DNA of 64,000 nt from an uncultured Gemmatimonadales bacterium (GTDB lineage: Bacteria > Gemmatimonadota > Gemmatimonadetes > Longimicrobiales > RSA9), in the NCBI GenBank assembly GCA_963798085.1, contig CAWCRS010000009.1, forward strand, positions 192,001-256,000, read 5' to 3'. Below are positions 4,016-26,939 of this stretch, piece after piece; the first letter of the stretch is position 1; every line of letters begins with the position of its first letter. Position numbers and translations under genes: made by a program. The notes beneath the pieces were generated by a model, which saw only the letters and a list, made by a program, of their open reading frames with translations, had not been told where the DNA came from and ran no database searches.

Positions 4016-4412
4016 TTGCGGGCCCATCGCCACAGGTCCCGGTGCCGCCGTCGGTTCGCCATCGCCGTTCGCACCTCCGTAGCGGAGCCGCCGGTACGCG
4101 AGGGAGCCGCAGCCCGACGTTCGGGAGTAACGCAAGAATAATGGCACCGCAGCAAAGGGCAGGCCGATCGGGCCCGAGCAGGCGCCGGGCACGCCACGGT
4201 CGCCGTATGCAGGCGACGGCGCTGTTTCGGACCGGCCGGTGTCCCCCCGGGCGGCCTCGCCTGCCGGCCCTGGCGGGGCTCCACTGGAACCGGCCCGGGA
4301 ACCGGCCACAACGCGACCGTGGACGCAACCGTGTACTATTCCGGAGTTGGGCGCGTCACGATTTCAGTCGACCGGCGATCTCGAAGGTATCCGGCAACTC
4401 CCTGTTTGCAAG

Positions 4413-6616
4413 ATGAGCCCACTGTCACGGCGTGCGTTCTTCCAGATTGCCGGCACCGGCGGCGCCGTTCTGCTGCTCGGCGTCGTCGCGCGCGACCTGC
4501 ACATCGCGCGCATCACGGGGCGTACCGCGGCGGGGCTCGAGCGTTTCGATTTCGGCGCCTTCCTGCGCATGGATGAAAGCGGTCGCGTCACTGTCTGGAT
4601 CTCGCGTTCGGAGATGGGGCAGGGCGTCAGCACCGCGCTACCCATGCTCGTGGCAGAGGAACTGGAAATCGAGTGGTCCGCCGTGAGCATCGCGTTAGCG
4701 GACCTCGACGCCCGCCTGGGCGAGCAGGGCACGTCGGGCAGCTTCAGCATGCGCACGCTCTGGGAGCCTCTGCGCAAGGCGGGCGCGAGCGCGCGTCAGA
4801 TGCTGATTGCCGCCGCTGCGGCGCGCTGGAACGTTCCGGCGGCGGAGTGTCGCGCGGCAGCAGGGCGTGTGACGCATGAGCCCGGCCGCCGCGCCGCAAC
4901 CTACGGCGAGCTGGTGCGCGAAGCCGCACTGCTGCCGGTGCCGGAAGATGTGCCGCTGAAACCGCCGGAGCAGTATCGCCTGCTCGGTCGACGGCTGCCC
5001 CGCCAGGGAATGCGCGCCATCGTGCGCGGCGCTATGGAGTACGGCATCAATGTGCGCGTGCCCGGCATGCTGTTCGCCAGCGTCGAGCACCCGCCGCAGC
5101 ACGGCGGGCGCATTGCGCATCTCGATGATGCGGCCGCCCTCGCGCTGCGCGGTGTGCGCTCGGTCCTGGTGATCGAGCCGTCTTCGCCGCCGCAACATCG
5201 CTGGGGCGGCGTGGCGGTCGTGGCGGAGAGTACGTGGGCCGCGTTCCAGGGACGCCGGGCGCTGCGCATCGAGTGGACCGCTCCGGCCGGCAGTGCCGGC
5301 GACAGCAGCGCGCAGCTCGATGCGGCGCTGGACCGCGCGCTCCTCGAATCCGGCAGCGTGGTTCGCAGGGAAGGCGATGCCGCGGCTGTGCTCGCGCACC
5401 CGGCGCATTGTGTCGAGGCGACGTACGCACTGCCCTTCCTGGCGCACGCCACGATGGAGCCGATGAACTGCACCGCGCACGTGACCGGCGATCGCTGCGA
5501 GGTGTGGGCGCCGACGCAGTCGCCGGGCGGCGTTGCCGGCAATGTGTCGCGGGCGCTGGGCATTGCGCGCGACCATGTGACCGTGCACGTGGTGCGCATG
5601 GGTGGAGGTTTCGGGCGACGCAGTTTCCCCGACGTTGCCGTCGAAGCCGCCCTGATCTCCCGCCATGCCGACGTGCCGGTGCAGGTCATTGGACACGCGA
5701 GGATGACATGCGCAACGACTACTACCGGCCCGCGAGCCGTCACAGACTGCGGGCGGCAATCGACAATGCGGGTCGCGTGATCGCGTGGGAGCACCGCTTC
5801 GCTTCGACCGCCATTGCCGGGTTCACGGATCCGGGCGGCCCCGCCAATGTGATGGAGCTGGGCGGCGCCGCCGATGTGCCTTTCGCGATTCCCAACGTGC
5901 GCGTCGAGTATCGCGCGGTGCCGTCGGCCATGCCGCGCGGCTGGCTGCGCTCCGTCGAGCACGGGCCCAACGCCTTCGCCGTGCAATCGTTCGTGGGCGA
6001 GCTGGCGGCTGCGACGGGCCGCGATGCGCATGCGCTGTTAGTCGAGCTGATCGGTCCGCCCCGGCTGATCCCGCCGCCGCTGGACGATGGCGGCTACTCG
6101 CTGCCGCTCGACACGGCAAGACTGCGGCGCGTCCTCGATCTCGCCGCGCAACGTGCGGGCTGGGGCTCCACCGTTCCCGCCGGCACGGGCCGCGGCATCG
6201 CCGCGCACTGCTCGCGCAGCTACGCGGCTGCCGTGGTCGATGCCTCCGTCAGCGAATCCGGAATCGTGAAAGTGCAGCGCGTGGTGTGCGCCGTCGACTG
6301 CGGCTTCGTGATCGACCCCGGCGGCGTCGAAGCAAACCTCGAAGGCGGCATCGTGTTCGCGCTCTCGGCCGCACTGGGCGGGCTGATCACGGTGGCGAAC
6401 GGCGAGGTCGAGCAGGGCAACTTCGATCGCTATCCCGTGCTGCGCCTGGCAGACACGCCCTCCATTGAAGTGCACCTGACACCGAGCCAGGATCCGCCAC
6501 TGGGCGTGGGCGAAGCCGCGGTGCCGCCGGTCGCGCCCGCACTGGCCAACGCCATCTTCGCCGCCACCGGCCGGCGGGTCCGACGGCTGCCCATCCTGCC
6601 GGACGATCTGCGCTGA
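4413..6616 (+). CDS. Xanthine dehydrogenase family molybdopterin-binding subunit (IorB-like), Tat signal, frameshift near 5690
   Basis: SRRAFF Tat motif; SEMGQG, HATMEP, GGGFGRR, WTREDD, GVGEAAVPPVAPALANAIFAATGRR. Split over ORFs 4239..5780 and 5234..6616. Confidence 0.88.
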
Positions 6617-7340: not shown

Positions 7341-10056
7341 GTGGCGGTGGGGGACATGGCGGCCGGGGCGGTGCCGGGCCGGGGTTGCGGACATCAGTGG
7401 CGCTGCTGGCTGTTCCGGAGTGTGCTGCGGCTCGCGCCGGGCCGGTTCCGCGACCGGTTCGGCGCCGCGATGGTGGCGGATTTCCGCGAGCAGCTGGCGG
7501 AATCGTGCGGTCCGGGCCGGCTGTCGTGGGTGCGGGTAACAGCGCGTTCGCTGGCGGATCTGCTGGGGGTGGTAGCGCGGGAGCGAATCGCGCCGGCGGT
7601 CCGCGCGGCCGGCGACCCCCCGATGGAGCGATGGGTGTGGCGCGGCTCGCGGGACGCGCTCGGGCCGGATCTGAGGATCGGGCTGCGGTCGCTCGCCCGC
7701 CGGCCGCGCTTTGTGGCGCTGGTGCTCGCCACGCTGGGTGTGGGGGTGGGTGCTAACACGGCGTTGTTCTCCATGGTGAACGCCGTGCTGCTGCGGCCGC
7801 TGCCGTTGCGCGCGCCGGACCGGCTGGTGTCGGTGTGGCAGGAGGACCTGAGCGCGGCGGCGGCAGCATGGCGGCGCCGGCGAGCCTCGATGCGTGGCGC
7901 GCGCAGGTCGCCTCGTTCGCGGCCGTGGGTGCATACGGGACTCGCCTGGGCTGGACCGTCGTGTCCGGCGGGGACGAGCCCAGGGCACTGAAGACTGCAT
8001 GGGTGACGGGCAATTTCCTTGATGTCCTGGGCGTGGCGGTGTTGCGGGGTCGCACGTTCCACGACGAGGAAACGTGGAGCGACGCGGCGCCCGTCGTGAT
8101 CGTGAGCGACGAGTACCGCGCGCGCCGTTTCGGGCCGGGTGTGGATGTGATCGGCAGGACGATCACGGTGGACGATGCGCAGCGTACGATCGTGGGGGTT
8201 CTGCCGGCGGGCCTGTCGTTCCCCGAGAGCGGGATCGCACTTTGGCTGCCGCTGGGCTGGGACCGGAGGCCGTGGGCGCGGCGTGGTTCCGGCAGGACCG
8301 CTTCGTGAGCGTGGTGGCGCGGCTGCGGCCGGGCGTGAGCCTCGAACGCGCGGCGTTGGAACTGTCGGTCGTGCGTCCGCCCGTCGGGGGGATCGCCTCC
8401 GTGCGCAATCGCATTGCGCCGCTGCAGGCGGCACTGGCCACTGAGGCGAGGACACCACTGCTGCTCCTCTTCGGATTCACGACGCTGCTGCTCGTATTGA
8501 CATGCGCGAATCTCGCCAACCTGATGCTGCTGCGGGCAGCAGAGAGGGCGCACGAGGTCGCGGTGCGCGCAGCGCTGGGTGCGGGGCGGCGTCGCATTCT
8601 GCGCGAGCTGCTGATCGAGACGCTTCTGCTGGCGGCGGGTGGCGGGATCGCGGCACTCGTGGTGGCGCGGATCTCGATCCGCCTGCTGCACCTTCTGCGC
8701 CCGCCTGACGCGTGGCGGCTGCAGGCGGTGCCGCTCGATAGTCACGTGTTAGTATGGGCCTGTGGGGCGACGCTGGGGTGCACCGTCTTCTTCGGGATGC
8801 TGCCTGCCTGGCGAGGCCTCCGTTCCGCGGCCGGTGCGGGCACCAGCCGCATGACGACGGGCCCGCAGGGCCGGCGGGTGGCGCGCATCCTCGTGGGCAG
8901 CGAGATCGCGCTCGCGCTCGTGCTCGCCACCGGCGCCACGCTGCTGCTGCGCAGCTTCGCGGCCCTGACCCGCGTCGACGCCGGCTTCCGGACGACCGAT
9001 CGCTTCGCCGCACAGCTCCTCGTTCCGCTGCGCTACAACTCGGATCCGCAGCAGCTCGCGCTCGCGGAACGCGTCACCGCGTCGCTGGCTGCGCTGCCGG
9101 GCGTGGCCGACGTCACGTACACGAGCCGGCTGCCGTTCACGGGCACGACGATCCTGATGGGCAACGTTGTGGCGGACCCGGCCGAGCCCGGCTCGGCGCC
9201 TGTGCCGGTGGGCGCGCGCACCATTGCGGACGACTATTTCCGCGTGCTGGATGTGCCGGTCGTCGAGGGGCGCGCGTTCTCGACGACCGACGGTCTCGAT
9301 ACCGAGCCAGTCGTCATTGTGAACGAGACGTTCCGGCGACATTACTTCCCGGCCGGACGCGCTGTGGGCGCGCGCATCACATGGGACAAGGATCCGGGCC
9401 CACGCTCCGACTGGTATCGCATCGTCGGCGTCGTGCCGGACCAGCTCCAGCTGGATCCGCGATCCGCCACGCGGCTGGAAGTATTCTTCGCGTTCCGGCA
9501 GAAGCCCGGCCGCTTCCTCAACATGCTGTTGCGGGTTCGTCCGGGTACGCGTTCGCTCGAGCCGGCGATTCGCGAGCGACTGTCCGCGGTCGACCCGGCG
9601 CTGGCCGTCTTTTCGTTCCGTTCGCTGGAATCCGTCCACGCGGAGACGCTGAGCCCCGACCGCTCGCTCACGCTGCTCACTGCGATCTTCGCCAGTGTCG
9701 CGCTCTTCCTCGCCGTGATCGGCATCCATGGCGCCACCGCCGAAACCGTCCGGCGGCGGACGAAAGAGATCGGCATCCGTGTGGCGCTGGGCGCGCAGTC
9801 CCGCGATATCGCCGGGCTCGCGCTGCGCGAGAGCGCACGGCTTGCGGGCATGGGCACGATCGCGGGCCTGGTCCTCGCTCTCGCCGGTTCCCGCATCCTG
9901 GCGAGTGTCCTCTTTGCGGTCGACGTGCACGACATCACGACCTGGATACTGGTGCCCACTGGACTTCTCATCACGGCCATTGCCGCGAGCGGCCGACCCG
10001 CGTTGCAGGCCGCGCGCATTGACCCCCTCGACGCGCTGGGCCGCGACGCAACCTGA
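7337..10056 (+). CDS. ADOP-type duplicated MacB/FtsX ABC permease, frameshifts near 7400, 7865 and 8270
   Basis: FRDRFGAAM N-terminus; LGVGANTALFSMVNAVLLRPLP; CANLANLMLLRA..R..EVAVRAALGA; RRTKEIGIRVALGA; AARIDPLDAL. Confidence 0.85.
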
Positions 10057-10141: not shown

Positions 10142-10756
10142 CTATGCCGGTGCCGTCGGCCGCAGGTCCAGCACTTCGCCGTTGATGTACCCGGCATCGG
10201 GCGACAGCAGGAAACACGCTGTTTGAACGGCGGCTTCGGCAGCCGCCTCGCCATCCTGTGGAACGATCACGGCATTGCAGGTGATGCTGCGCCGGCCGTA
10301 CTCGATGGCGATGGCGCGGGCCAGGCAGACCAGGGCCTCACACAACGATGCGGGGATGGTGGCGGGCTCGCGCGGGCAGCGCACGAACACCAGCAGCCGG
10401 CCGCCTTCACCGCCGGCCATGAACTCGTCGACCACGCGGCGGGCCACGAGGAACGCGGCGCGCAGCGGCGAGGTGAGCGCGGCATGCCACGCGGCAGTGC
10501 AGCCGCCGGTGAGTGATACATCCTTCGCGGACGTGTCGGCGAGGAGGATCATGCCGGCGGGCGTTCCCATCCCGGCGAGCACGTTGTCGAGCGCGTCGTC
10601 GACATTCTGCTCTTCCGACAGATCACGCGTGTGGCGCAGGTTTTCGGTGCGCCAGCCTTCGCGCGCGAGCGCCTCGGTCAACGCGCAGCCCAGGCCGCCG
10701 GCAGCGCCGGTCACGTCTGCGACGACCAGACCGCCGGGCGAAGCCTGCAGCATCAT
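10142..10756 (-). CDS. Short, degenerate SDR-like protein
   Basis: VTGAAGGLG Rossmann motif and C-terminal FLLSPDAGYINGEVL, but no YxxxK motif. Confidence 0.7.
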   Translation of the reverse strand: MMLQASPGGLVVADVTGAAGGLGCALTEALAREGWRTENLRHTRDLSEEQNVDDALDNVLAGMGTPAGMILLADTSAKDVSLTGGCTAAWHAALTSPLRAAFLVARRVVDEFMAGGEGGRLLVFVRCPREPATIPASLCEALVCLARAIAIEYGRRSITCNAVIVPQDGEAAAEAAVQTACFLLSPDAGYINGEVLDLRPTAPA

Positions 10757-11679
10757 GCGACGCGCACAGCGCTGACGCTGGCGTCAGCGAACGTGGAGCA
10801 TGCCGCGGCGGGGAACTGTCGCCGCACGCAGCGCAGCAGCACATCGCCGGGCCCGCACTGAATGAACGTCGCTACGCCCAGCGCGCGCACGGCCTCAATG
10901 CTTTCCTGGAAGAGCACCGGCGCCGTCAGCTGGCGCAGAATCGATGCGCGCACGGCACGCGCCGTGGTGAGCGGGTGCGCGGTCACATTGTCGATGACGA
11001 CCGCCTGCGGATCGGCGATCGGGCAGCGCGCGACGACGGGCGCGAGCGCATCGGCCGCGGGGCGCAGCAGTTCCGAGTGCGTGGCGATGGACACCGCCAG
11101 CGGTACCACGCCGAAGCCCGCGGCATCGAGTGCGTCGCCTACCGCGTCGACGGCGGGACGCGTGCCCGAGATGACCGTCTGGTCCGGAGCGTTGTGGCAG
11201 GCCACGCCGACCACGCCGAGAGCCTGTCCCTGGCGGCACGCCGCGTACACGGCCGCGCGGTCGGCTCCCAGAATAGCGGCCATGGCGCCGCCTTCGGGCG
11301 GCATGGCGGCGGCCATTGCTCTTGCCCTTGCCTGCAGCAGCTCGAGCGCCGGCTCGAACGCAATGGCGCCGGCCGCCACCAGTGCTGCGAATTGCCCGAC
11401 GCTGTGACCGATGAGCATGCGCGGCTCGATGCCCTGCGCGCGCAGCCGGAGCGCGTGCAGCACGCCGATGGTGAGGAGCGCAGGCTGGGCTAACTCCGTG
11501 TTTAGCAGTGCTTCGGCCGGTCCTTCGCGCATCAGCCGGGAGAGCGGCCGACTCAGGCGGGCATCCGCGGCCGCCAGCAGATCCTGCGCAAAAGGCGCGC
11601 TTGCCAGCGCGTCATCGAGCATGCCTGCGGCCTGACTGCCCTGGCCGGCGAAGAGCAGCGCCACGCCGTGCGGAGTCAC
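10753..11679 (-). CDS. fabD: ACP S-malonyltransferase (FabD-like free-standing acyltransferase)
   Basis: LFAGQGSQ, TELAQPAL, GHSVGQ active site, NAPDQTVISG, QLTAPVLF. Confidence 0.9.
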   Translation of the reverse strand: MTPHGVALLFAGQGSQAAGMLDDALASAPFAQDLLAAADARLSRPLSRLMREGPAEALLNTELAQPALLTIGVLHALRLRAQGIEPRMLIGHSVGQFAALVAAGAIAFEPALELLQARARAMAAAMPPEGGAMAAILGADRAAVYAACRQGQALGVVGVACHNAPDQTVISGTRPAVDAVGDALDAAGFGVVPLAVSIATHSELLRPAADALAPVVARCPIADPQAVVIDNVTAHPLTTARAVRASILRQLTAPVLFQESIEAVRALGVATFIQCGPGDVLLRCVRRQFPAAACSTFADASVSAVRVA

Positions 11680-12956
11680 GATGCCCGTCCCACCACGAGC
11701 GATGTGCTCAGCCCGCCGAAGCCGAAGGAGTTGGACAGGGCAATGTCAATGGGCTGTTCGCGCGCGTGGTTGGGCACGAAATCGAGATCCAGCGCCGGAT
11801 CGGGGTCATCGAGGTTAATGGTCGGATGCAGCACGCCCTGCTCGAGTTGCATGACGGTGGCGACCAGCTCGACAATGCCCGCGGCGCTCAGGCAGTGACC
11901 GGTCAGGGACTTTGTCGAATTGATAGCGAGGTTCCATGCGTGGCGGCCGAACACCTCCTTGAGCGAATCCACCTCGGTGGCATCACCCAGCGGCGTGGAG
12001 GCGGCGTGTGCGTTCACATAGTCGACCTGATCGGGCGTCACGCGCGCGTCGTCCAGCGCGCCGCGAATGGCGCGCACCTGTCCGGCAATGCGCGGTTTGG
12101 GCAGCCGCGAAGCGTCCGACGCGGCGGCGCCGCCCAGCATGTGCGCCCGCAGATGGGCGCCGCGCGCCCGCGCGCTGGCTTCCGTTTCCAGCACTACGGC
12201 CGCGCCCGCGTGACTGGGGACGAAGCCCTCACGGCGCATGTCGAAGGGACGGCTGGCGCGGTTCGGCTCGTCGTTGAAGGAACGGTACGAGATGGCATCG
12301 AGCATGGCCCACGCGTGCAGCGTCACGGGGTCGACATCGCCCAGCGCGCCGGTCACTAACACGGCATCAGCACGGCCCAGGCGCAGCATGTCCATGGCCG
12401 TGAGCATGGCCACGTTGCCGCTGGCGCAGGCGTTGCCCGCCAGCAGGCTGGGTCCGCCCAGGCCGAGGATCTCGCAGACAATGGCCACGACGTCGGTGTC
12501 CATTGCCAGCACGCCGTACAGCGGGTCGATGAACTCGGGCTCCTCCTGGAAGGCGAGGTGGTTCCGGTAGGAGAAGCCCGCGACGATGTTGTTGCCGCCC
12601 GTGACATGACCCACGCGCTCGAGGTTCACCGAGCCATCGAGGATGCCGGCATCCACCGCGGCCTGGCAGGCGGCCGAGGCCGTCACCCGCCCGGAGAGCG
12701 TGCAGGCGCGCAACGAGCGCCGTGCGCGCTCGATCAGCTGCGATGGATAGCAGGCGCCCGCGCAATCCAGATGCGCAGTGAGGTCGAAGTCACTCAGGTC
12801 GCCGAGCAGCAGTGCGTACTCGTCGTCGCGCACGTTGCGGCGCCGCGAGATGCCCGACCTGCCCGCCACCAGCGAGGCGAAGAACTGGTCCGGGGTCTGC
12901 CCGATCGTGGACACGATCCCAATGCCGGTAATGACGATTCCCCGATCATGCTTCAC
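11676..12956 (-). CDS. Free-standing beta-ketoacyl-ACP synthase, PksF-like
   Basis: IVITGIG; GNACASG (Cys), NAHAASTPLGD (His), NSTKSLTGHCLSAAG (His), SNSFGFGG. Confidence 0.9.
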   Translation of the reverse strand: MKHDRGIVITGIGIVSTIGQTPDQFFASLVAGRSGISRRRNVRDDEYALLLGDLSDFDLTAHLDCAGACYPSQLIERARRSLRACTLSGRVTASAACQAAVDAGILDGSVNLERVGHVTGGNNIVAGFSYRNHLAFQEEPEFIDPLYGVLAMDTDVVAIVCEILGLGGPSLLAGNACASGNVAMLTAMDMLRLGRADAVLVTGALGDVDPVTLHAWAMLDAISYRSFNDEPNRASRPFDMRREGFVPSHAGAAVVLETEASARARGAHLRAHMLGGAAASDASRLPKPRIAGQVRAIRGALDDARVTPDQVDYVNAHAASTPLGDATEVDSLKEVFGRHAWNLAINSTKSLTGHCLSAAGIVELVATVMQLEQGVLHPTINLDDPDPALDLDFVPNHAREQPIDIALSNSFGFGGLSTSLVVGRAS

Positions 12957-13030
12957 GGCTCATACCTCCTCTGCCACGGCGAGGAACAGGACTCAGTCAG
13001 CGGACGTCACGCGCAATGCCCAGGATGTAC

Positions 13031-13729
13031 TCACCATCCGTCCGTCTCAGCGTGCGCAGTCTCACGTACAACTGTGTTAGTGGTCCGCCCCGGCCAGGTT
13101 CGTCGCGCCCGCACGATGGCGCGGCCCGCCTCTGCATCGAATGACTCCAGCTCGACCACGTCGGGCCCGGCTGCGGGCGGCAGGCGGAGTGCCTTCCATG
13201 CGGCTTCCTTCGCCACCCACGCGCACAATCCCGCGCGCGATTCAGCGAGGCCGGACGACAGGATCAGGCGCTGCTCCCGGCGCGAGAACGCGTAGGGGCT
13301 GTGCGCGACGTCGGTCTCACGCGCCCGCTCGAGATCAATGCCAACGCGCGTGGTCGTGGGTGCACGCTTCCCGGTGCCCACCTCGCCGCGCCAGGCCAGT
13401 GCCACGGCAAGGCGTGCCGAATGGGCAATCGCCACGCGCATCCCGACCGCCCCCGCGACTTCGGGAGCGCCGTGCGCGTCGTTGCGCACCCATGCGTGCG
13501 CTGACGCAATGTCGCCCAGTCGCGCGATGGCGAGCTGTGCGGCGCGGCGCCCGAGAGCGAACTGGCGCCGCCGGCCGGCTTCATGCGCGGCAGCGGCGGC
13601 CCGCTCGTTCTCGTGCAATGGCGCTTCCAGCGCAGCGAGCGTGCGGCCGGCATCGGCGCAGAGGGCGATCGCGAACCCGGAGCTGCGTCGTCGCCTGTCA
13701 GGCAGGGCGTCAGCCACAGGCGTGGACAT
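13031..13729 (-). CDS. Sfp-type 4'-phosphopantetheinyl transferase
   Basis: FALGRRAA, GAPEV, VAIAHS, VGIDLE, WVAKEAAWKA motifs. C-terminus may be frameshifted. Confidence 0.85.
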   Translation of the reverse strand: MSTPVADALPDRRRRSSGFAIALCADAGRTLAALEAPLHENERAAAAAHEAGRRRQFALGRRAAQLAIARLGDIASAHAWVRNDAHGAPEVAGAVGMRVAIAHSARLAVALAWRGEVGTGKRAPTTTRVGIDLERARETDVAHSPYAFSRREQRLILSSGLAESRAGLCAWVAKEAAWKALRLPPAAGPDVVELESFDAEAGRAIVRARRTWPGRTTNTVVRETAHAETDGW

Positions 13730-13735
13730 TCGCGA

Positions 13736-13997
13736 TCACACCGGCTGGGTGGTGACTTCGGGTGCGTTCTCCAGCAGTGTCAGCAGGTCGCCCAGGTTCT
13801 TCGCCTGCGCGAGGTCCGTGCGCTTGATCTTGCGACGACACTGCTTCATGCTGCGCGACACGACCTCCACCATTCTCGAGCGAGTCCGCGCCGAAGTCGC
13901 GCATGGAGTGCTGCTCGGTGATCTCCTTGCCGCGGGCACCCTCGATGATCGCCTGGATGTTGCCCTTGATCACCTCGAAGATCGCTTCTCTGGTCAC
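13736..13997 (-). CDS. Acyl carrier protein, AcpK-like (donor-ACP type), frameshift near 13873
   Basis: MTREAIFEVIKGNIQAII...MRDFGADSLE|MVEVVSRSM...KIKRTDLAQAKNLGDLLTLL. GADS phosphopantetheine site; AGAGGAGG RBS. Confidence 0.85.
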
Positions 13998-14013
13998 AGT
14001 CGCCTCCTCTGTC

Positions 14014-14565
14014 TCAGGTTGCGGGAACGTACGCCGAAAGCGCAGTCGCCGAGCACACCTCGCCGCGCTGCAGACACTGTCCGACCACGGTGTAGAACAG
14101 CCCATCCTCGGCGCCGGCGACGATGATCTCGACCGGTGCGCCGGGCGTGATGGGGCGCACGAAGCGCGCGCCCAGGATGTGCGTAGCCGCGACTTCCACC
14201 AGCGGCTCATCGCGCTGCAGTGCGAGGAGCAGACAGCCCGCCTGTGCCACGGCCTCCGCCTGCAGCACGCCCGGCCACAGCGGCCTTCCGGGGAAATGGC
14301 CCGCTAACACCGCAGCAGCACGGGCAATGTCGTAGCAGGCCACCATCAGGCCCGCTTCGCGGTCGAGCGCGGTCACCTGATCCACGAGCAGAAACGGATC
14401 GCGGTGCGGCAGCAGACGTTCGATGCCGGCGAGGTCGAGCAGCGGCAGCGCTGCTTCCGTTGCCGGCGGCACCAGCCGCGAGCGGCTGGCCTCGCGCAGC
14501 AGTGCTGCCACCGCATCCGGATCGAGCGGCGTCACGAGGCGGGCGGACGAGACGAGAGCCGTCAC
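14014..14565 (-). CDS. fabZ: FabZ-like 3-hydroxyacyl-ACP dehydratase
   Basis: LLPHRDPFLLVD and GHFPGRPLWPGVLQAEAVAQ motifs. GTGA overlap with the upstream SDR. Confidence 0.88.
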   Translation of the reverse strand: MTALVSSARLVTPLDPDAVAALLREASRSRLVPPATEAALPLLDLAGIERLLPHRDPFLLVDQVTALDREAGLMVACYDIARAAAVLAGHFPGRPLWPGVLQAEAVAQAGCLLLALQRDEPLVEVAATHILGARFVRPITPGAPVEIIVAGAEDGLFYTVVGQCLQRGEVCSATALSAYVPAT

Positions 14566-15392
14566 GGTGTCGTCGCCTGCAATGGGGCGGCGGATTCCGT
14601 GCGTGCCTTGTCGAACAGGAAATGCGTGGGCCCGAGCAGCGACCAGCCTTCGTCCACGACAATGACCTGTCCTGTGACCGCGTCCATCAGACCGGAGCAC
14701 AGCGCCACGCATACGCCTGCCACCCGCCGCGGATCGAGCAGCATTTCCGACGCGTCGCGCGCCAGCGCATCGACCGCGGCATCGCCCAGTACGGCGCGCA
14801 GGCTGGCGGTGTCCATGAAGCCCGGCCGCACGGCATTCACGCACACGCCCTCGGAGCGCAGCCGGACAGCGAGGTAGCGGACCATCGTCTCGAGTGTGGC
14901 CTTGGCCGCGCCGGCGAGGTCGTAGCCGGGATGGCAGACGATGCCGCCGTCGCTGCTCACCGCGATCACATGGCGAGGCATTCGGGGCAGCACGTCGCGG
15001 GCCAGCTGGACCAGCTCGACCAGCGGCCACGATGAATAGCGCAGCGACAGCTCGAGCGCACCGCGCCGCAGATCGTCCAGCTCGCCGGTCACCTTGGCAA
15101 ACGCGACATTACTCACGATCGCGTCGAGACGGCCGTAGCGGCGCGCGATGCCCTGCAGCAACTCGCGGGTCGAGTCGGCATCGCTGGCATCGCACTCGAG
15201 GATCCAGGGCGGAAGGCCGCCCTCGGCGCCGAATTCGGCGAGCAGCTCATCCTCGTCCGCGCTGCCCCAGCGGTGCGTCAGCACGACCTGCGCGCCACGG
15301 CGGGCGAACTCGAGGCCCACGGCCTTGCCGAAGCCGCGCGTGCCGCCCGTGATCAGCACCACCTGGTACATCGCGCCATCGTGCATCGTCAT
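14562..15392 (-). CDS. SDR, FabL/FabI-like enoyl-ACP reductase
   Basis: ITGGTRGFG; SSDGGIVCHPGYDLAGAAKATLE shows the Y-x6-K spacing typical of enoyl-ACP reductases. Confidence 0.75.
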   Translation of the reverse strand: MTMHDGAMYQVVLITGGTRGFGKAVGLEFARRGAQVVLTHRWGSADEDELLAEFGAEGGLPPWILECDASDADSTRELLQGIARRYGRLDAIVSNVAFAKVTGELDDLRRGALELSLRYSSWPLVELVQLARDVLPRMPRHVIAVSSDGGIVCHPGYDLAGAAKATLETMVRYLAVRLRSEGVCVNAVRPGFMDTASLRAVLGDAAVDALARDASEMLLDPRRVAGVCVALCSGLMDAVTGQVIVVDEGWSLLGPTHFLFDKARTESAAPLQATTP

Positions 15393-16156
15393 TCCTCCGC
15401 CGCCCCGGTGGGTGCACCGTACACCGCCGCAATGCGGGACTGGATTCTGGTCATGCCCATGAGCGTGATCTGCGCGCGGCGCTCCTGCTCCGCCGCGCCC
15501 AGCACGGCGTCACGACGGCGTTGCAGTATCAGCCGCTTGAGTGCGACCAGCGTCTCGCGCGGCACATCGGCGATCTCGCCCGCGATCTCGAGCGCGCGCG
15601 ATCGGACATGCGTGCGCGGCAGCACTGCGTGCGCGAGTGGCGTGCCCGCGCGCGCCAGCTCGCGTCCCTTCATGAGCCGGCCTGTGAACAGCATCTCGCG
15701 CGCGAGCGGCTCGCCCATTGCCTCGGCCAGCAGCACGCTCGAGCCCATGCCGGGCGTGAAGCCGAGCGACACGAAGTTGGCGCCGTAGAGACTCTCCTCC
15801 GCGAGCAGCGTGATGTCGCAGCAGAGCGCCATGGCGAGGCCGCCGCCCAGCGCGTGGCCGGCGGCGACTGCGATCAGGGGCAGCTCGATCCCGAACAGCA
15901 CACGCGGTATCTCGGCGACCAGCGCGGGCACCGCGCTCTGTGCATCGGGTCCCACCAGCAGCTCGCGGCTGCCGCCCGCCGAGAAGTAGGTCGCGCCGCC
16001 TTCGAGCAGGATCACGCGCGTGTCCGGCTCGGCCGCTGCCGCGTGCAGCACAGCGGCCAGCTCGGCGGGCGTCCAGTCGAAGTGCGACTCCGCATTCGTC
16101 GACACCGCGACCGAGAGCACGCCCGGCGAGAGGCTGCGCAGCACGGGCATCGTCAT
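15389..16156 (-). CDS. Enoyl-CoA hydratase-like decarboxylase (PksI/ECH2-like)
   Basis: YFSAGGSRELL, GHALGGG, ANFVSLGFTPGMG (PksI-type signature). C-terminal part of ORF 15389..17020. Confidence 0.85.
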   Translation of the reverse strand: MTMPVLRSLSPGVLSVAVSTNAESHFDWTPAELAAVLHAAAAEPDTRVILLEGGATYFSAGGSRELLVGPDAQSAVPALVAEIPRVLFGIELPLIAVAAGHALGGGLAMALCCDITLLAEESLYGANFVSLGFTPGMGSSVLLAEAMGEPLAREMLFTGRLMKGRELARAGTPLAHAVLPRTHVRSRALEIAGEIADVPRETLVALKRLILQRRRDAVLGAAEQERRAQITLMGMTRIQSRIAAVYGAPTGAAEE

Positions 16157-16950
16157 GCGACGCACTGCAGCAGCCCGCCCGTCGCCAGCAGCGCCTGCCC
16201 GTTGAAGTGACGCGACGCATCCGACGCCAGGAACAGCACGGTGCCGGCCATCTCCGCGGCCGAGCCCGCGCGCCGCTGCGGGCAGTACTCGAGCCAGAAG
16301 GCACGGGTGCGCGGGTTCAGGCCCTGCGCCAGCTCCGTGTCGACATAACCGGCGATTACCATGTTGGCGCGGATCCGGTCGCCGGCGAACTCCCGGGCAA
16401 TGGCCTGCGTCATGCCCAGCAGAGCGCCCTTGCTGGCGCCGTAGCTGCTGTTGTTCGCAGTGCCCTGCTGCGCGATCGAGCCGACCGTGACGAGGGTCGC
16501 CGGCCGGCCGGCGGCGCGCGCACCGCACACCAGCTCGCGCGCCACCAGCAGACAGCCTGTCAGGTTGGTGGCGACGACACGGTCCCATTCCGCGACGCTG
16601 TGCGAGACCAGCAGCTCGGCAGCGCTCGTGCCGGCGTTGTTGATCGCCACATCGACGGGCCCGAACCGGGTCCGCGCAGTCTCGAACAGCCGCGCCACAT
16701 CGTCGGCGTTCGACACATCCGCCTGCAGCGTGCACACGCGGCCTTCGCCCACGAGTGTGGCCGCCGCAGCTTCGACCTGAGAACCGCCGCGTTCGATCTG
16801 GCGCGCGCAGCACATCACGCGTGCACCCCGGCTCGCCGCTTCCAGCACAATGGCCCGGCCGATGCCGCGCGTGCCACCGGTCACGATGACAACGCGGTCT
16901 TCCAGCGCGCGCGCAGCCTGCGCGTGCCGCACGGGCGCGGTCGCGCTCAC
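16153..16950 (-). CDS. SDR, FabG-like 3-oxoacyl-ACP reductase
   Basis: VTGGTRGIG, INNAG, YGASK catalytic motif. Confidence 0.88.
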   Translation of the reverse strand: MSATAPVRHAQAARALEDRVVIVTGGTRGIGRAIVLEAASRGARVMCCARQIERGGSQVEAAAATLVGEGRVCTLQADVSNADDVARLFETARTRFGPVDVAINNAGTSAAELLVSHSVAEWDRVVATNLTGCLLVARELVCGARAAGRPATLVTVGSIAQQGTANNSSYGASKGALLGMTQAIAREFAGDRIRANMVIAGYVDTELAQGLNPRTRAFWLEYCPQRRAGSAAEMAGTVLFLASDASRHFNGQALLATGGLLQCVA

Positions 16951-17699
16951 GCGGTCGCTCCCGCCAGCCAGGGCGCATCGCCCGCGACGAACCGCGCCAT
17001 CCGGTCACGCGTCGCTTCACTAACGCCGAGCTTGATCGCCTCGGCGCGCGCCGCGCTAGCGTACGGCGAGTCGAACAGACAGGTATCCGCCACCACGCGC
17101 TTCACGGCGGCAATCGAGCGGGCGTCCATGCGGCGGAAACGCGCCGCGTACCTTGCGGCGGCGGCGTCGAGGTCGTCGACAACCTCATCGACGAGGCCAA
17201 TGCGCAGTGCGGCTTCCGCATCGAGCGTGGGCCCGCCCATGGCGAGCCGTCGCGCGTGCGCGCTGCTGACGCGCGTACGCAGCGACACGAACGCGAACAC
17301 GGGAATGAGTCCAATGAGGGCTTCGGGCAGCGCGAAGACCGCGCGTCGTGTGGCCAGCACCACGTCAGCGGCGGCGGCCACGCCCAGGCCTCCGCCCATC
17401 GCGGGGCCATCCACGAGTGCCAGCACGGGCCGCGCACAGCGACCGATCGCGGTCACCAGCTCGCCATAGCGGTCGAGGGCTTCACCCAGTGTGGCTGCCG
17501 CCGCCGTTTCGAGCAGCGGCGCGATGGTCTCGAGCGGCAGCCCCCGGCAGAACTCGCCGTCAGCGCCTTCGAGCGTCACTACGCTCGGCGCTTGCGCACC
17601 GCGCAACGCCGCTGACACGCGTGCTACGAGGTCGGGGCTCAGCCGTGGCTGGCCCTCGCCATCGCGCAGCACGAGGCGCAGCCGGTCAGCTGCGGACAT
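16947..17699 (-). CDS. Enoyl-CoA hydratase-like dehydratase (PksH/ECH1-like)
   Basis: FCRG, DGPAMGGGLGVAAAAD, FALPEALIGLIP, C-terminal RFVAGDAPW. Confidence 0.85.
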   Translation of the reverse strand: MSAADRLRLVLRDGEGQPRLSPDLVARVSAALRGAQAPSVVTLEGADGEFCRGLPLETIAPLLETAAAATLGEALDRYGELVTAIGRCARPVLALVDGPAMGGGLGVAAAADVVLATRRAVFALPEALIGLIPVFAFVSLRTRVSSAHARRLAMGGPTLDAEAALRIGLVDEVVDDLDAAAARYAARFRRMDARSIAAVKRVVADTCLFDSPYASAARAEAIKLGVSEATRDRMARFVAGDAPWLAGATA

Positions 17700-18912
17700 A
17701 GTGACGGAAGAAGTTGTCGACACGATCCAGGACGAGCCGGTCGCGTGACTCATACGCTTCGTGGTAGCGCCACGCCGCCACGGAGCGGTCCGGAACAAAG
17801 CTGTCGGCAGTAAGGCTGCCGTACACACCGGCGGCCGCCGCATCCAGCTCCGCGACCGAGACTTCGTGACGCGCAGCCAGCGCTGCGCCGACGCGGCGCT
17901 TCGCCATGATGGCACTCGCTGTCGGCGCCACCGTGCCGCTGAGCACTTCCGCCAATGCGCCCGATCCGTAGGAGAACATGCCAATGCGCTCGCCGGCATC
18001 GCCTTCCGCGAGACTGTCGAGAATGCCGATCAGCGAGAGGAACACGCAGCCGGAGTAGGTATTGCCCACCAGTCGCGTGTAGGTGAGCGAAGGCCTGACC
18101 ATGCGCTCGAAGCTGGCGGACACATCGGCATCGGACGCGTCGGGCTTGTCACCCTGCATCAGCGCGCGATGCGCCTGCTGCACCAGCCAGACCAGCGGCG
18201 TGTGGAACGCCATGTAGCGGAAATGCTGCTCGAAGCGCACCGGTCCCGCCTGGTTGCGATACTGCTCCCACGCCAGGTCGAGCATGTCGAGGTACGCCGA
18301 GACGGAACGCAGCGGATCGCCTGCTTCCTGCAACGGGCGAGGCCGGCGCAGGTCACGCACGTCATCCGCCGCGCAGCCTTCCACGGGATCGAGATTCAGA
18401 ACACGCGGGTCGCTCGACACCACGATCGCCACAGACCCCTCGCCCGACGTCATCTCCGCCGGGTGATGCGGGCGGCGTCCGGCCAGATCCGTGGTGACCA
18501 CGAGCGCCCGGCGGCCGCGCGCAATGCCCGAACGCACCCATGCGGCGGCCAGCTGGAGCGCAGTGACACCCGCATAACACGCGTTTTTCAGTTCGACATG
18601 CCGGCACGACGTGGACAGGCCGAGTCCCTGATGGACGTGCGTGCTGATGGGAATGCCGTAGTCCAGCGCCGTTTCGGTTGCGACCAGCAGCAGGCCGAAG
18701 CTTTCGCGGCCGGCCGCGCGCACCAGCGGATCCGCCGAGTTGACCGCCAGCGTCACGGGGTCCTCGAAAGGCGGCACCACCGACCGGCGCACGAACTGCG
18801 CGTGCCCACGCTCGCGTTCCGTCAGCCCGCGCTCGCGCGCGATCGCGTCATAACTGATGGTCAGCGGACCCGTGTACAGATTGATGTCGTCGATTCCGAC
18901 CGCACCGATCAT
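17686..18912 (-). CDS. HMG-CoA synthase-like protein (PksG/HMGS-like)
   Basis: EDPVTLAVN, ATET (Glu), ELKNACYAG (Cys), MAFHTP (His), VGNTYSG, FSYGSG. Confidence 0.92.
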   Translation of the reverse strand: MIGAVGIDDINLYTGPLTISYDAIARERGLTERERGHAQFVRRSVVPPFEDPVTLAVNSADPLVRAAGRESFGLLLVATETALDYGIPISTHVHQGLGLSTSCRHVELKNACYAGVTALQLAAAWVRSGIARGRRALVVTTDLAGRRPHHPAEMTSGEGSVAIVVSSDPRVLNLDPVEGCAADDVRDLRRPRPLQEAGDPLRSVSAYLDMLDLAWEQYRNQAGPVRFEQHFRYMAFHTPLVWLVQQAHRALMQGDKPDASDADVSASFERMVRPSLTYTRLVGNTYSGCVFLSLIGILDSLAEGDAGERIGMFSYGSGALAEVLSGTVAPTASAIMAKRRVGAALAARHEVSVAELDAAAAGVYGSLTADSFVPDRSVAAWRYHEAYESRDRLVLDRVDNFFRHYVRS

Positions 18913-19147: not shown

Positions 19148-20320
19148 ATGTCGACATCGACGCTTCGCCTGGATTACGCCGGCCGACTGCTCTGCGTGCC
19201 GGCATTCGGCCTGCTCGCGGGTGCGCTCGCCGCACGCGCGCAGGCGCCGCTGGAAGCGCCCCGGCTGGAGACAGTCGCCACGGGCGTGTACGTGCTGCAC
19301 AACCCGCGCGCCAACGAGTCCTGGCCACAGGGTAACACGGTGATAGTGGTGGGCGACCGGGCGGCGCTGGTTGTCGACGCGGACTACCTGCCCGGCACCG
19401 CACGCGCCGATATCGACATCATCCGTCGTCTCACCGACAAGCCTGTGCGCTACCTCGTCAACACGCACTGGCACTACGACCACACCAACGGCAACTACGT
19501 GTATCGCGCGGCGTTTCCGGGCCTCTCGATCATTGCGCACCCGGAGACGCGGCGACTGCTGCGCGAGAACGCGCCGCGCTACCTCGCCTCGGTACTCGCG
19601 CCCGAGTCGCCCGTGCGCAAGTCGGTGGCGAATTCGAAGAAGGTGCTGGCCGATCTCGCCGCGAAGGGCGACACGACGGGTCGCGCGCTGTACCAGCAGC
19701 GCCTGGCACAGCGCGAGCTGGAGCTGCGCGAAATTGCGCAGGTGCACGTCGACCTGCCCGACCTGCTGGTGGAACACGAATTGACGATCGACCTGGGCGG
19801 GCGCGAGGTGGTCATTCGACACCTGGGCCGGGGCAACACACCAGGCGATCTCGTGATCTGGCTGCCGCAGGAGCACATCATCGCCACGGGCGACATCGTC
19901 GTCTCACCCATGCCGTACGCCTACAACTCGAGTCCCGGCAGCTGGCTCGGCGTGCTGGATGCGATCCTCGCGCTGCAGCCGCGCGCGCTGCTGCCCGGCC
20001 ACGGCGAAGTGCAGCGCCCGGCCGATGCACCAGGCGCAGCCCATGCGGGTACCGGCGCGGCGGAGCCTGCTAATGTCGCGTTCGTGCGATCGCTGGACTA
20101 CACGCGCGCCGTGCGCGACATGATCGCGGATGTGGTGGACAGAGTGCGCACCGCGTATCGCGCCGGGAAAACGGAAGACGAAGCACGCGCGTCGATCGAC
20201 TTCACCGCGTACCTGCGGCGCCTTGCCGGCGAGGACGAGTTCCTGCAGCAGGTGTTTACCAGCTCGATCGTGACGGCACTGGTGGACCGCGCGTGGGCGG
20301 AGGCGGGGGGCGGCACGTAG
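19148..20320 (+). CDS. Exported MBL-fold metallo-hydrolase (cyclase-like)
   Basis: Signal-peptide-like N-terminus; NTHWHYDH, TGD, PGHG motifs. Confidence 0.85.
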   Translation: MSTSTLRLDYAGRLLCVPAFGLLAGALAARAQAPLEAPRLETVATGVYVLHNPRANESWPQGNTVIVVGDRAALVVDADYLPGTARADIDIIRRLTDKPVRYLVNTHWHYDHTNGNYVYRAAFPGLSIIAHPETRRLLRENAPRYLASVLAPESPVRKSVANSKKVLADLAAKGDTTGRALYQQRLAQRELELREIAQVHVDLPDLLVEHELTIDLGGREVVIRHLGRGNTPGDLVIWLPQEHIIATGDIVVSPMPYAYNSSPGSWLGVLDAILALQPRALLPGHGEVQRPADAPGAAHAGTGAAEPANVAFVRSLDYTRAVRDMIADVVDRVRTAYRAGKTEDEARASIDFTAYLRRLAGEDEFLQQVFTSSIVTALVDRAWAEAGGGT

Positions 20321-24804: not shown

Positions 24805-26939
24805 ATGAGCCGCAATACCAGCATGGACCGCCGCGACTTCATCCGGCTGGGCACGCTCGCGGGCAGCGGCCTGCTGCTCGGCGTCTACGTTCCGGGCGGC
24901 ACCCGCCGCTGGCTGGGCGACGACGCCACCGCCGCCACCTCGCTCCAGCCTAACGCCTTCGTACAGGTCGACACGGACGGCACCGTGACCATCTGGTCGG
25001 CACGCTCCGACATGGGGCAGGGCGTACGCACCGCCATGCCCATGATCGTGGCCGATGAGCTGGATGCGGACTGGAGCACCGTGCACATCCGCCAGGCCGA
25101 TGCGCACCCCACGCAGTACGGCCGCATGATGACGGTGGGCAGCTCGAGCGTGCGCGGCAACGCCTGGATGGCGCTGCGCCAGGCCGGGCGCCACCGCGCG
25201 CCAGATGCTGGTCGCCGCCGCAGCCGCGCGCTGGGGTGTGAGTGCGGCCGAGTGCCGCACCGATAACAGTCGTGTTATCCACGACGCCTCGCACCGCTCG
25301 CTCGGCTACGGCGAAGTCGCAGCAGCGGCCGCCGCACTGCCCGTACCTGCAGAGCCTCGCCTCAAGGACCCGAAGGACTTCAAGCTCATCGGCAAACGCG
25401 TGCCGCTGGTCGACACGAAAGAGAAAGTCAGCGGGCAGGCGAAGTACGGCATCGACGCGCGCACACCGGGCATGCTGTTCGCCACGGTCGTGCATCCGCC
25501 CGTCTTCGGCGACACCGTGAAGTCCTTCGACGCCAGCGCCGCGAAGGCAGTGCGCGGCGTGCGCCATGTCGTCCAGATCTCACAGGGCGTGGCCGTTGTC
25601 GGCGATAACACCTGGGCCGCGCTCAAGGGCGCGAAGGCGCTGACTGTCGAGTGGCAGAGCGGCGGCTTCGCCATGAGCAGTGACGACATTTTCGCCAGCC
25701 TGGCGCAGCTCGCGCAGAAGCCCGGCGCCGAAGCCCACAAGTCGGGCGATGCCGATGCCGGTCTCGCGCGCGCCGCTCACAAGGTCGACGCCGTCTACAA
25801 GGCGCCGTACCTGGCGCACGCGACGATGGAGCCGATGAACTGCACCGCCGATGTGCGCGCCGGATCACTGCGAGATCTGGGCGCCCACGCAGAATCCGCA
25901 GGGCACCCAGAGCGCGGCCGCGCAGATCACGGGCCTGCCTGTCGAGAAGGTCACGGTGCACGTGCCGTACCTGGGCTGCGGCTGGGGCCGCCGTTCGCGC
26001 ACCGACTTCGTGCAGGACGCGGTGGAAGTGTCGAAGCAGATCGGCGCGCCGGTGCAGGTGCTCTGGACGCGCGAAGAGGATATGCGACACGACCAGTACC
26101 GTCCCGCCGCCCACGTCGAGTTCCACGGTGGCGTCGATGCCGCCGGCAGGGTCAGCGCACTGCGCGCCCGCATTGCCACGCCGCCCATCGCAGGCGGCCG
26201 CGGCCGCGTGGACGGCCCCGCCGTCGATGCCATTGCTAACACGCCGTATGCAATCCCGGACCTGGCCGTCGAGTACTGCCAGCCGGACATTGACGTGCCC
26301 GTCGGCTACTGGCGCTCCGTGGGACCGTCGCAGAACGCGTTCTTCCTCGAGAGCTTCATGGATGAGCTGGCCCACGCCGCCAACCGTGATCCGCTCGACG
26401 TGCGACTCGAGCTGCTCGCCAATGCGCCCCGCCTGCGCAACGTGCTGCAGCTGGCGGCCCAGCGAGCGGACTGGAAGACGCCGCCGCCCGCCGGTCACGC
26501 CCGCGGCATCGGCCTGGCCGAGCTGGATGGCTCCCATGTCGCGGAGATCGCAGAAGTCTCGCTGCAGAACGGCCGCGTGCGCGTGCACAAGGTCTGGTGC
26601 GTCGCCGACTGCGGCCGCGTCATGCACCCGGGCATCGTCGAAGCCCAGCTCATGGGTTCCATCATCGGTGGCCTGACCGCCGCGCTCTACGGCGAGATCA
26701 CCATTGAGAAGGGCGCCGCCAAGCAGGGCAACTTCAACGACTACCGCATGGTGCGCATCAGCGAAGCGCCGGAGTACGACATTCACATCGTGGCCAGCGA
26801 CGAGGAGCCGGGCGGCGCGGGAGAGCCGGGCGTGCCCCAGATCGCACCGGCCGTGGCTAACGCGCTGTTCAAGCTCACCGGCACGCGCATCCGGCAGCTG
26901 CCCATCAGTCAGCAGGCGCTGGCCTCGACACAGCAGTAG
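24805..26939 (+). CDS. Molybdopterin-binding subunit, IorB-like, Tat signal, frameshifts near 25188 and 25862
   Basis: DRRDFIR Tat motif; [35 protein letters not shown]. Confidence 0.88.

Follow-up and report, generated by a model that had tools for sequence, protein, structure and literature searches.

Gene content and organization of the operon

The window analyzed here, a 64-kb stretch of contig CAWCRS010000009.1 from an uncultured Gemmatimonadales bacterium, carries on its minus strand an 8.8-kb run of 11 genes (18912 to 10142). In order, these encode a hydroxymethylglutaryl-acyl carrier protein (HMG-ACP) synthase (HMGS), an ECH1 dehydratase, a ketoreductase (KR), an ECH2 decarboxylase homolog, an enoyl reductase (ER), a dehydratase (DH), an ACP, a phosphopantetheinyl transferase (PPTase), a ketosynthase (KS), an acyltransferase (AT) and a degenerate short-chain dehydrogenase/reductase (SDR). 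Neighboring genes overlap by 4 or 14 nt at 7 of the 10 junctions and the remaining gaps measure 16, 6 and 74 nt; thus, the 11 genes are read as one operon, which is real and not an artefact. The original prediction had described 11 co-oriented, mostly overlapping genes in this order, and this is confirmed. The gene set, its order and its catalytic motifs are read directly from the DNA: a full type II fatty acid synthase (FAS) set (AT, KS, KR, DH, ER, ACP and PPTase) is translationally coupled with HMGS, ECH1 and ECH2 in one unit. The core common to the readings weighed below, a self-contained synthase of a branched acyl-ACP, is likely correct. Tentatively, and as the likeliest of these readings, the operon would encode a self-priming, ACP-bound type II FAS with built-in HMG-type beta-branching, which would make an iso-chain via isovaleryl-ACP for use in lipids.

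Domain calls were made with Pfam and NCBIfam, and several of the best NCBIfam models score under their cut-offs. The KS (11676..12956) is related to PksF, its best NCBIfam model being the PksF-like PRK07103 (390 bits against a cut-off of 445), and it has a Cys177-His317-His354 active site. Among the best 120 proteins (query included), Cys177 is found in 120, His317 in 119 and His354 in 120, and the active-site Cys is also present at all ten loci of a sister lineage described below. The canonical HMG-CoA synthase (HCS) cassette of polyketide synthases (PKSs) is defined by a condensation-inactive KS0 (excerpt of PMC10006238), and none of five KS0s from plasmid cassettes beside modular PKSs has the Cys (four Ser, one Met). 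Because the operon KS retains it, this enzyme is not a KS0 and could in principle condense rather than act only as a decarboxylase; the earlier placing of the KS within a PksF-type cassette was thus wrong in a key respect. The operon has neither a KS0 lacking the active-site Cys nor an LnmK-type acyltransferase/decarboxylase (AT/DC). In a quick IQ-TREE analysis, the window lineage (support 98), the sister lineage (100) and FabF (100) are all distinct, and the two Cys lineages unite at only 84, adjoining the KS0s. Two family candidates were dropped after this tree, L112 as a Ser-KS0 of a canonical cassette and L004 as a FabF. Two pairs of Cys-KS homologs (P0063/P0071 and P0116/P0118) share longest-contig values (22426 and 19889, respectively), and two copies of the Cys-KS may be present at some related loci.

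The other FAS enzymes (AT, DH, KR, ER and PPTase) all keep their motifs. The AT (10753..11679) is a FabD-like malonyl transacylase (PF00698; TIGR00128, 242 bits) with GHSVG, the conserved Arg and ATHS. The KR (16153..16950) is FabG-like by Pfam, NCBIfam and alignment and has YxxxK. The ER (14562..15392) is of the FabL/FabI type with Yx6K; its best NCBIfam model, FabL PRK08063, falls below cut-off, and it belongs to a cluster-specific SDR clade with a support of 100. The FabZ-like DH (14014..14565) has an N-terminal extension and the motifs LPHR and GHF..PGV...E, and the Sfp-type PPTase (13031..13729; PF01648/PF17837) has both signature motifs. A discrete AT, a Cys-His-His KS, KR, DH, ER and ACP, each with its motifs, make up the gene content of a type II FAS or highly reducing type II PKS. 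No FabH, chain-length factor (CLF) or ligase was found among the 11 operon genes, and no FabH, ligase or other starter enzyme in the gene lists of related clusters.

The last gene (10142..10756) encodes an SDR without YxxxK that groups with FabG-type KRs in a tree carrying a long-branch warning, and it has a counterpart at the related locus L083 (35% identity). A 2:2 model of this protein with the KR scored 0.92 (best control 0.43), with at least 91% of contacts agreeing between runs and a partner pLDDT of at least 86. This score clears a mark that 116 of 157 solved complexes and 2 of 215 mismatched pairs attain; these rates apply only approximately here. Many SDR tetramers have been solved, the pass may come from likeness to them, and what the model demonstrates is resemblance, not binding. 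The degenerate SDR is a probable non-catalytic partner of the KR.

The single ACP gene (13736..13997), of the AcpK (donor) type with a GADSL motif, is split over two frames by one extra base near 13874, just past GADSLE. Its type stands as originally predicted, since the product aligns as AcpK when read through with an X at the break and the intact orthologs at L083 and L003 match PRK07117; the broken frame is a correction to that prediction. A Trp six residues after the Ser often flags modular acceptor ACPs, and the operon ACP lacks it. Exceptions to this flag exist (excerpt of PMC10006238). With one ACP gene only, the same protein would have to serve as both donor and acceptor. Frameshifts also break the housekeeping fabF and fabD in this assembly, which makes an assembly error the likelier cause of the ACP break, and the break is probably such an error.

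Branching enzymes

HMGS (17686..18912; 408 aa; PF01154/PF08540) has an intact Glu/Cys/His triad, the one described in PMC11522927. Its best PDB matches are CurD, VirC and PksG, which rank above mevalonate HMG-CoA synthases (HMGCSs), and it is the sole HMGS found in the source genome G000 (6.23 Mb, 12 contigs, 90% complete). A role in the mevalonate pathway was rejected because HMG-CoA reductase (PF00368) was not found in this genome; the same search was positive in 5 of 14 controls.

ECH1 (16947..17699; PF00378) is PksH-like, with PRK07112 as its best NCBIfam model, below cut-off. Among 36 top representatives aligned (of 150 listed), the equivalent of Glu137, which the operon protein keeps, is Glu in all 36, and the equivalent of Asp68, which is Pro in the operon protein, is Asp in 29. 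ECH2 (15389..16156) is PksI/CurF-like (best model PRK07110, below cut-off), and its Gln229 aligns in a PDB alignment with the catalytic His230 of PksI. The originally predicted HMGS/ECH1/ECH2 set is thus borne out as to genes, with the correction that ECH2 lacks the catalytic His. Among 99 proteins, query included, this column holds 77 His, 20 Gln, one Ile and one gap. Gln occurs in the operon protein and its 10 closest full-length relatives (57-79% identity), and His in L083, in all nine sister-lineage loci checked and in all three PKS-linked ECH2s. Switching between the two takes about four changes on the FastTree topology, of which the starred branches force only one, and no His or Lys column compensates by co-varying with the Gln. 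His230 of PksI is described as universally conserved and catalytic or essential, with H230A retaining some activity on a CoA substrate (excerpt of PMC7501309). The recurrence of the His-to-Gln change suggests a tolerated variant.

These replacements raise the rather unlikely alternative that ECH2 of this sub-lineage no longer decarboxylates, so that a beta-carboxymethyl branch (3-methylglutaconyl- or 3-methylglutaryl-type) would be kept and a diacid-type acyl chain made. This model is a third one, beside the two products originally proposed, an isovaleryl or other C5 unit and iteratively branched chains. The loss of the essential His in the operon protein and all ten of its closest full-length relatives, together with that of Asp68 in ECH1, would fit such a product, and some HCS cassettes are known to give carboxy branches (PMC11350588, in part). 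However, the change is nearly always to Gln (20 Gln, one Ile), which is expected of a hydrogen-bonding, tolerated variant rather than of a dead gene; PksI H230A remains partly active on a CoA substrate; and L083, with the same gene order, has the His.

It is very unlikely that the operon is decaying in the source genome and has no product. Decay would account for the ACP frameshift, the missing ECH1 Asp and ECH2 His, the degenerate SDR and the lack of an off-loading gene, but the essential fabF and fabD are split in the same way, the 10 frames other than ACP are all open and GC content at third codon positions (GC3) is normal. Moreover, the Gln-type ECH2 and the degenerate SDR are common to relatives, and for KS, HMGS and ECH2 there are relatives with 66-84% identity.

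Absence of a modular PKS from the assembly

No megasynthase is present in the gene list of the 64-kb window, which confirms the claim that the window holds no PKS or nonribosomal peptide synthetase (NRPS) megasynthase. A PF00109 search of the source genome gave seven matches, all in open frames of 363-462 aa and none modular: the housekeeping FabF, a lone FabF-like gene, the window KS and four weak thiolase/FabH-type proteins. Queries with three modular PKS proteins (tblastn) recovered only the same three discrete KS loci and crotonases, and PF00550 had three matches, all in short frames. The lack of a modular PKS in this assembly is a direct observation, to be read against its completeness of 90%, so that it is not absolute. 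The lone FabF-like KS (G000:C7:61457-63342) adjoins a small cyclase/START-like gene; no ACP was seen nearby.

Of the 11 cluster-bearing genomes, four (G000, G012, G474 and G518) had no detectable modular KS and seven have unlinked modular KSs; no megasynthase KS was found in the fetched flanks of related loci. Hence a modular PKS does not always co-occur with the cluster. The original prediction of a self-contained, dissociated ACP-dependent pathway is supported by these four genomes, by the flanks of the related loci and by a KS that can in principle condense. It is extremely unlikely that the operon is an ordinary HCS cassette serving, in trans, a modular PKS encoded in the 10% of the source genome that is missing from the assembly. 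HMGS, ECH1, ECH2 and ACP are indeed closest to PKS cassette proteins among characterized families, and the unlinked modular KSs of seven carriers would suit such an arrangement; but the other four carriers have none, a Cys-bearing KS with KR, DH and ER would be superfluous, and the HMGS and KS clades lie apart from the PKS-linked ones.

Related loci and distribution

Two further loci belong to the window lineage, and both keep the gene order of the window. L083 carries ECH2-ER-DH-ACP-KS-degenerate SDR followed by a FeeM-type N-acyl amino acid synthase gene, lacks PPTase and AT at the positions these have in the window, and is the one window-type locus whose 3' end could be inspected. L164, in genome G012, carries HMGS-ECH1-KR-ECH2 before its contig ends. 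KS and HMGS or ECH2 relatives have equal longest-contig values in at least nine cases (568449, 392381, 78808, 71087, 57347, 44900, 43235, 20056 and 7092), which suggests that they share contigs there. Source names of homologs, known as proteins and not as loci, include Kibdelosporangium, Actinokineospora, Thermocrispum, Vicinamibacteria and a cyanobacterium; one HMGS relative is assigned to the species Kibdelosporangium philippinense.

The KS and HMGS trees define the sister lineage, which comprises ten loci (L003, L084, L176, L177, L180, L183, L186, L189, L193 and L213) from Myxococcota, Acidobacteriota, a metagenome and the class of the source genome itself. All ten contain an alpha-oxoamine synthase gene, in some cases fused to an ACP, and some have a fatty-acid hydroxylase or desaturase nearby; this link is a direct observation. 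Two loci have two oxoamine synthases, one of them ACP-fused: the fusions (L183:3488-5023 and L186:3298-4923) each stand alongside a free oxoamine synthase of another clade. These synthases keep the pyridoxal phosphate (PLP) lysine and form two clades, and the two that were scored (L003 and L180) fall under the cut-off of every named family. Two FabL-like reductases are present in all nine complete sister loci, as against the single ER of the operon. An ER paralog about 110 residues longer, with a C-terminal extension, occurs at L177:10867-12012 and L193:11628-12767, and a FabF-type KS and a squalene-hopene/oxidosqualene cyclase gene (L183:11916-15346) lie directly upstream of one sister-lineage cluster.

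The cluster is carried by 2 of 73 genomes of the source genome's family, 1 of 181 in another family, 6 of 251 Myxococcota and 3 of 43 in one myxobacterial family; the carriers are related and do not count as independent samples. No match was found in 231 Chloroflexota, 251 genomes of the phylum of G1228, 171 of family f4 and 250 Acidobacteriota other than the centre genome, nor in plasmids (KS query at 1e-70) or viral contigs (HMGS query). A 401-genome phylum search, with four candidates scored per genome, recovered only the source genome, and in scans of genome and metagenome contigs with generic KS motifs only L003, L083 and L084 belonged to the family among the 160 matches listed. The distribution is patchy and the cluster is probably mobile.

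Patchiness is one ground for another, quite improbable, alternative, in which the branched acyl-ACP would be the starter or side chain of a small diffusible metabolite made by unlinked enzymes and not part of a membrane lipid. The low frequency within the family (2 of 73 genomes), the tetranucleotide distance of the operon region (rank 190 of 210 genome windows) and the FeeM-type gene adjoining L083 are in line with it; the absence of NRPS, PKS, transporter and tailoring genes near the operon, the mere three PF00550 matches in short frames and the tie of the sister lineage to oxoamine synthases are not.

The idea that the cluster serves as the primary FAS was rejected: three of five genomes (G518, G527 and G558) lack a canonical FabF, yet so do the relatives of G527, and the source genome has its own fab locus, which lies apart from the operon. 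FabF above the TIGR03150 cut-off was found in none of 43 genomes of the myxobacterial family of G527, with or without the cluster. Housekeeping fatty-acid synthesis in that family must rely on something other than FabF; G527 and G558 each carry a frame of about 2,200 aa that contains a KS.

Proposed pathway

All reactions of the pathway proposed here are assigned by homology, and the dual role of the ACP, the branch position, the chain length and the acceptor are likewise inferred. Malonyl-CoA would be the sole carbon source of the branched acyl-ACP. The PPTase would activate the ACP, the AT would load malonyl, and the Cys-bearing KS would prime (malonyl to acetyl) and then condense to acetoacetyl-ACP. 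Since neither the operon nor the gene lists of the related clusters include FabH, a ligase or another starter enzyme, the first beta-keto intermediate should be acetoacetyl-ACP, which is of the natural HMGS substrate size. HMGS would then form HMG-ACP with an acetyl group carried by a second copy of this ACP, and dehydration by ECH1, decarboxylation by ECH2 and reduction by ER would yield methylglutaconyl-ACP, methylcrotonyl-ACP and isovaleryl-ACP, respectively. A long iso-branched acyl-ACP would arise through further rounds with KS, KR, DH and ER, in which the degenerate SDR would be a structural partner of the KR. For use in a lipid, this product would be handed over in trans, for instance to the SPT-like ceramide locus of the source genome or to an acyltransferase.

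That locus (G000:C3:541912-546127; L196:5913-10127) consists of an epimerase-type reductase gene, a gene resembling serine palmitoyltransferase (SPT), a frameshifted acyltransferase-like gene and a PAP2-like frame in a row, and is a probable ceramide locus. The best NCBIfam model of the SPT-like gene is SerpalmtaseCFB (541 bits against a cut-off of 640). Its two neighbors are presumably cerR and bcerS, labels that are assumed here from synteny. With an SPT-like gene flanked by a reductase gene and one resembling an acyltransferase, the locus corresponds to the spt/cerR/bcerS set of PMC11087976 and PMC11334938. Hand-off of the acyl chain to this locus is plausible.

The iso-chain pathway is favored by the coupling of a complete FAS set with HMGS, ECH1 and ECH2, by the oxoamine synthases at all ten sister loci, by the FeeM-type gene after L083 and by the SPT-like locus in the source genome. 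The conserved KS Cys, the lack of a modular PKS in four carrier genomes and the precedent of the AIB route on CoA also speak for it. Several points weigh against it. Iso-chains usually come from leucine via branched-chain keto acid dehydrogenase (BKD) and FabH, so that eleven genes devoted to making nothing more than a plain iso-chain would duplicate an existing route. ECH2 has Gln at the position where PksI needs His230 and ECH1 is without the Asp68 helper, and decarboxylation is therefore in doubt. The ACP is frameshifted in the assembly, and a public sequencing run gave a few short, near-identical contigs, none spanning the break. No off-loading enzyme is found among the 11 genes, none of the three oxoamine synthases of the source genome falls within either cluster-type clade, and FeeM was not found in that genome. 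Finally, the DNA context of the window lineage comes from three loci only, two of them on short contigs.

An unlikely alternative is that HMGS/ECH cycles alternate with KR/DH/ER cycles to build, by a fatty-acid route, isoprenoid-like chains, from geranoyl or farnesoyl up to phytanoyl, with methyls at C3, C7, C11 and C15. A chain beyond the reach of the housekeeping FAS would better justify a dedicated system, and one ACP with one KS would offer every beta-keto intermediate to both HMGS and KR. The two ER paralogs of the nine complete sister loci fit separate reduction of methyl-branched and plain enoyls, but they fit a single-branch model equally well, and the operon has one ER. HMGS substrate size is tied to flexible loops, and PKS HMGSs take long chains (excerpt of PMC11522927); because these loops set substrate size, preference for C4 or long chains cannot be told from sequence alone, and the loop comparison made here does not discriminate between them. 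No programming element was seen.

Comparison with known systems and origin

The operon would function in the manner of an HCS cassette joined to a type II FAS. With the HCS cassettes of bacillaene (AcpK/PksF/PksG/PksH/PksI), curacin (CurB-F) and virginiamycin (VirC/D/E), it shares the HMGS triad in an enzyme closer to CurD and PksG than to mevalonate HMGCS, ECH1, ECH2, a discrete AcpK-type donor ACP (frameshifted in this assembly), a free AT and a PksF-related KS. It departs from these cassettes, and is not a member of the class, in having no KS0 (its KS keeps the Cys), no modular acceptor ACP or megasynthase and Gln for His in ECH2; it also has its own KR, DH, ER and PPTase, and its HMGS and KS fall in separate clades. 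The myxobacterial AIB route (MvaS, LiuC, AibA/B and AibC) leads from HMG through methylglutaconyl and methylcrotonyl to isovaleryl on CoA (excerpt of PMC5389471), the logic proposed for the operon. Unlike that route, the operon would be ACP-bound, having an ACP and PPTase; it has crotonases, including a crotonase-type decarboxylase homolog, and an SDR instead of AibA/AibB and AibC, and is coupled to a private elongation system.

The fogacin type II PKS of Actinoplanes missouriensis, the nearest precedent, also places an HMGS cassette in a dissociated type II system, but it uses KS-CLF pairs and an LnmK-type AT/DC (PMC11350588, in part), whereas the operon has one KS, no CLF and a full KR/DH/ER set. 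Bacterial type II FAS (FabD/F/G/Z/L and AcpP) shares all elongation activities with the operon as discrete proteins; the operon differs in lacking FabH and in a KS and ACP that come from the PksF/AcpK lineage and not from FabF/AcpP. From the oxoamine-synthase-linked sister clusters, it differs in having no oxoamine synthase and one FabL-like reductase instead of two. Fogacin is reportedly formed by aromatic cyclization.

In an HMGS tree with four mevalonate-type HMGCSs as outgroup, the window, sister and PKS-linked clades have supports of 99, 99 and 100, and the window lineage splits off first (support for sister plus PKS-linked, 86). When 24 of the 32 rows were put through an approximately unbiased (AU) test, a union of the two stand-alone lineages was not rejected (p 0.1), and PKS-linked HMGSs were sampled as eight plasmid sequences. 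The HMGS trees allow, and do not demonstrate, descent of PKS cassettes from stand-alone Cys-KS systems. An unlikely further proposal joins this to the iterative route: the operon would make isoprenoid-like acyl chains without isoprenoid precursors, for membrane or amino lipids, and stand-alone Cys-KS systems would then be ancestral to modular-PKS cassettes through loss of the KS Cys.

A full-text literature search, which misses most subscription journals and supplements, found no description of such a cluster; the operon probably builds a branched lipid chain from acetate, by a route absent from the literature searched. Beta-branching has been known from giant polyketide assembly lines, where it is a tailoring step; fogacin is the one aromatic type II exception. 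To this the operon adds a lineage that has no oxoamine synthase, brings its own PPTase and includes a pseudo-KR subunit and a Gln-type ECH2. A widespread PKS-free version with its own FAS would be a second bacterial way to methyl-branched lipid chains and would bear on the reading of branched and isoprenoid-like environmental lipids as biomarkers. Competition between HMGS and KR for one ACP-bound intermediate is an open question in the field (excerpt of PMC10006238), which a small, fully discrete system makes testable in vitro. A PksF relative that has its Cys and an ECH2 with Gln are naturally occurring variants on which the accepted mechanisms of both enzymes can be tested, and they bear on where the cassette came from.

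Flanking genes and other observations

No promoter or terminator signals above chance were found for the operon, and an ESM Atlas look-up returned known families only. The flanking genes, a divergent metallo-beta-lactamase (MBL)-fold hydrolase (19148-20320) and a convergent FtsX/MacB permease, are unrelated to the operon, in agreement with the earlier description of the flanks. The MBL-fold gene was set aside as a PksB-like release enzyme, since PksB/BaeB and the MBL protein near L003 match it only at E values of 0.05 and 6e-4; it has two paralogs elsewhere in the source genome. One oxoamine synthase of this genome (G000:C7:259393-264584) lies outside the SPT, Kbl and cluster clades and adjoins a zinc-binding dehydrogenase and an oxidoreductase-like gene. 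Single-base frameshifts split many genes of the assembly, in the window at 4239-6616, 7341-10056 and 24823-26939 and also in fabF and fabD; broken genes in this assembly, housekeeping ones included, call for cautious reading.

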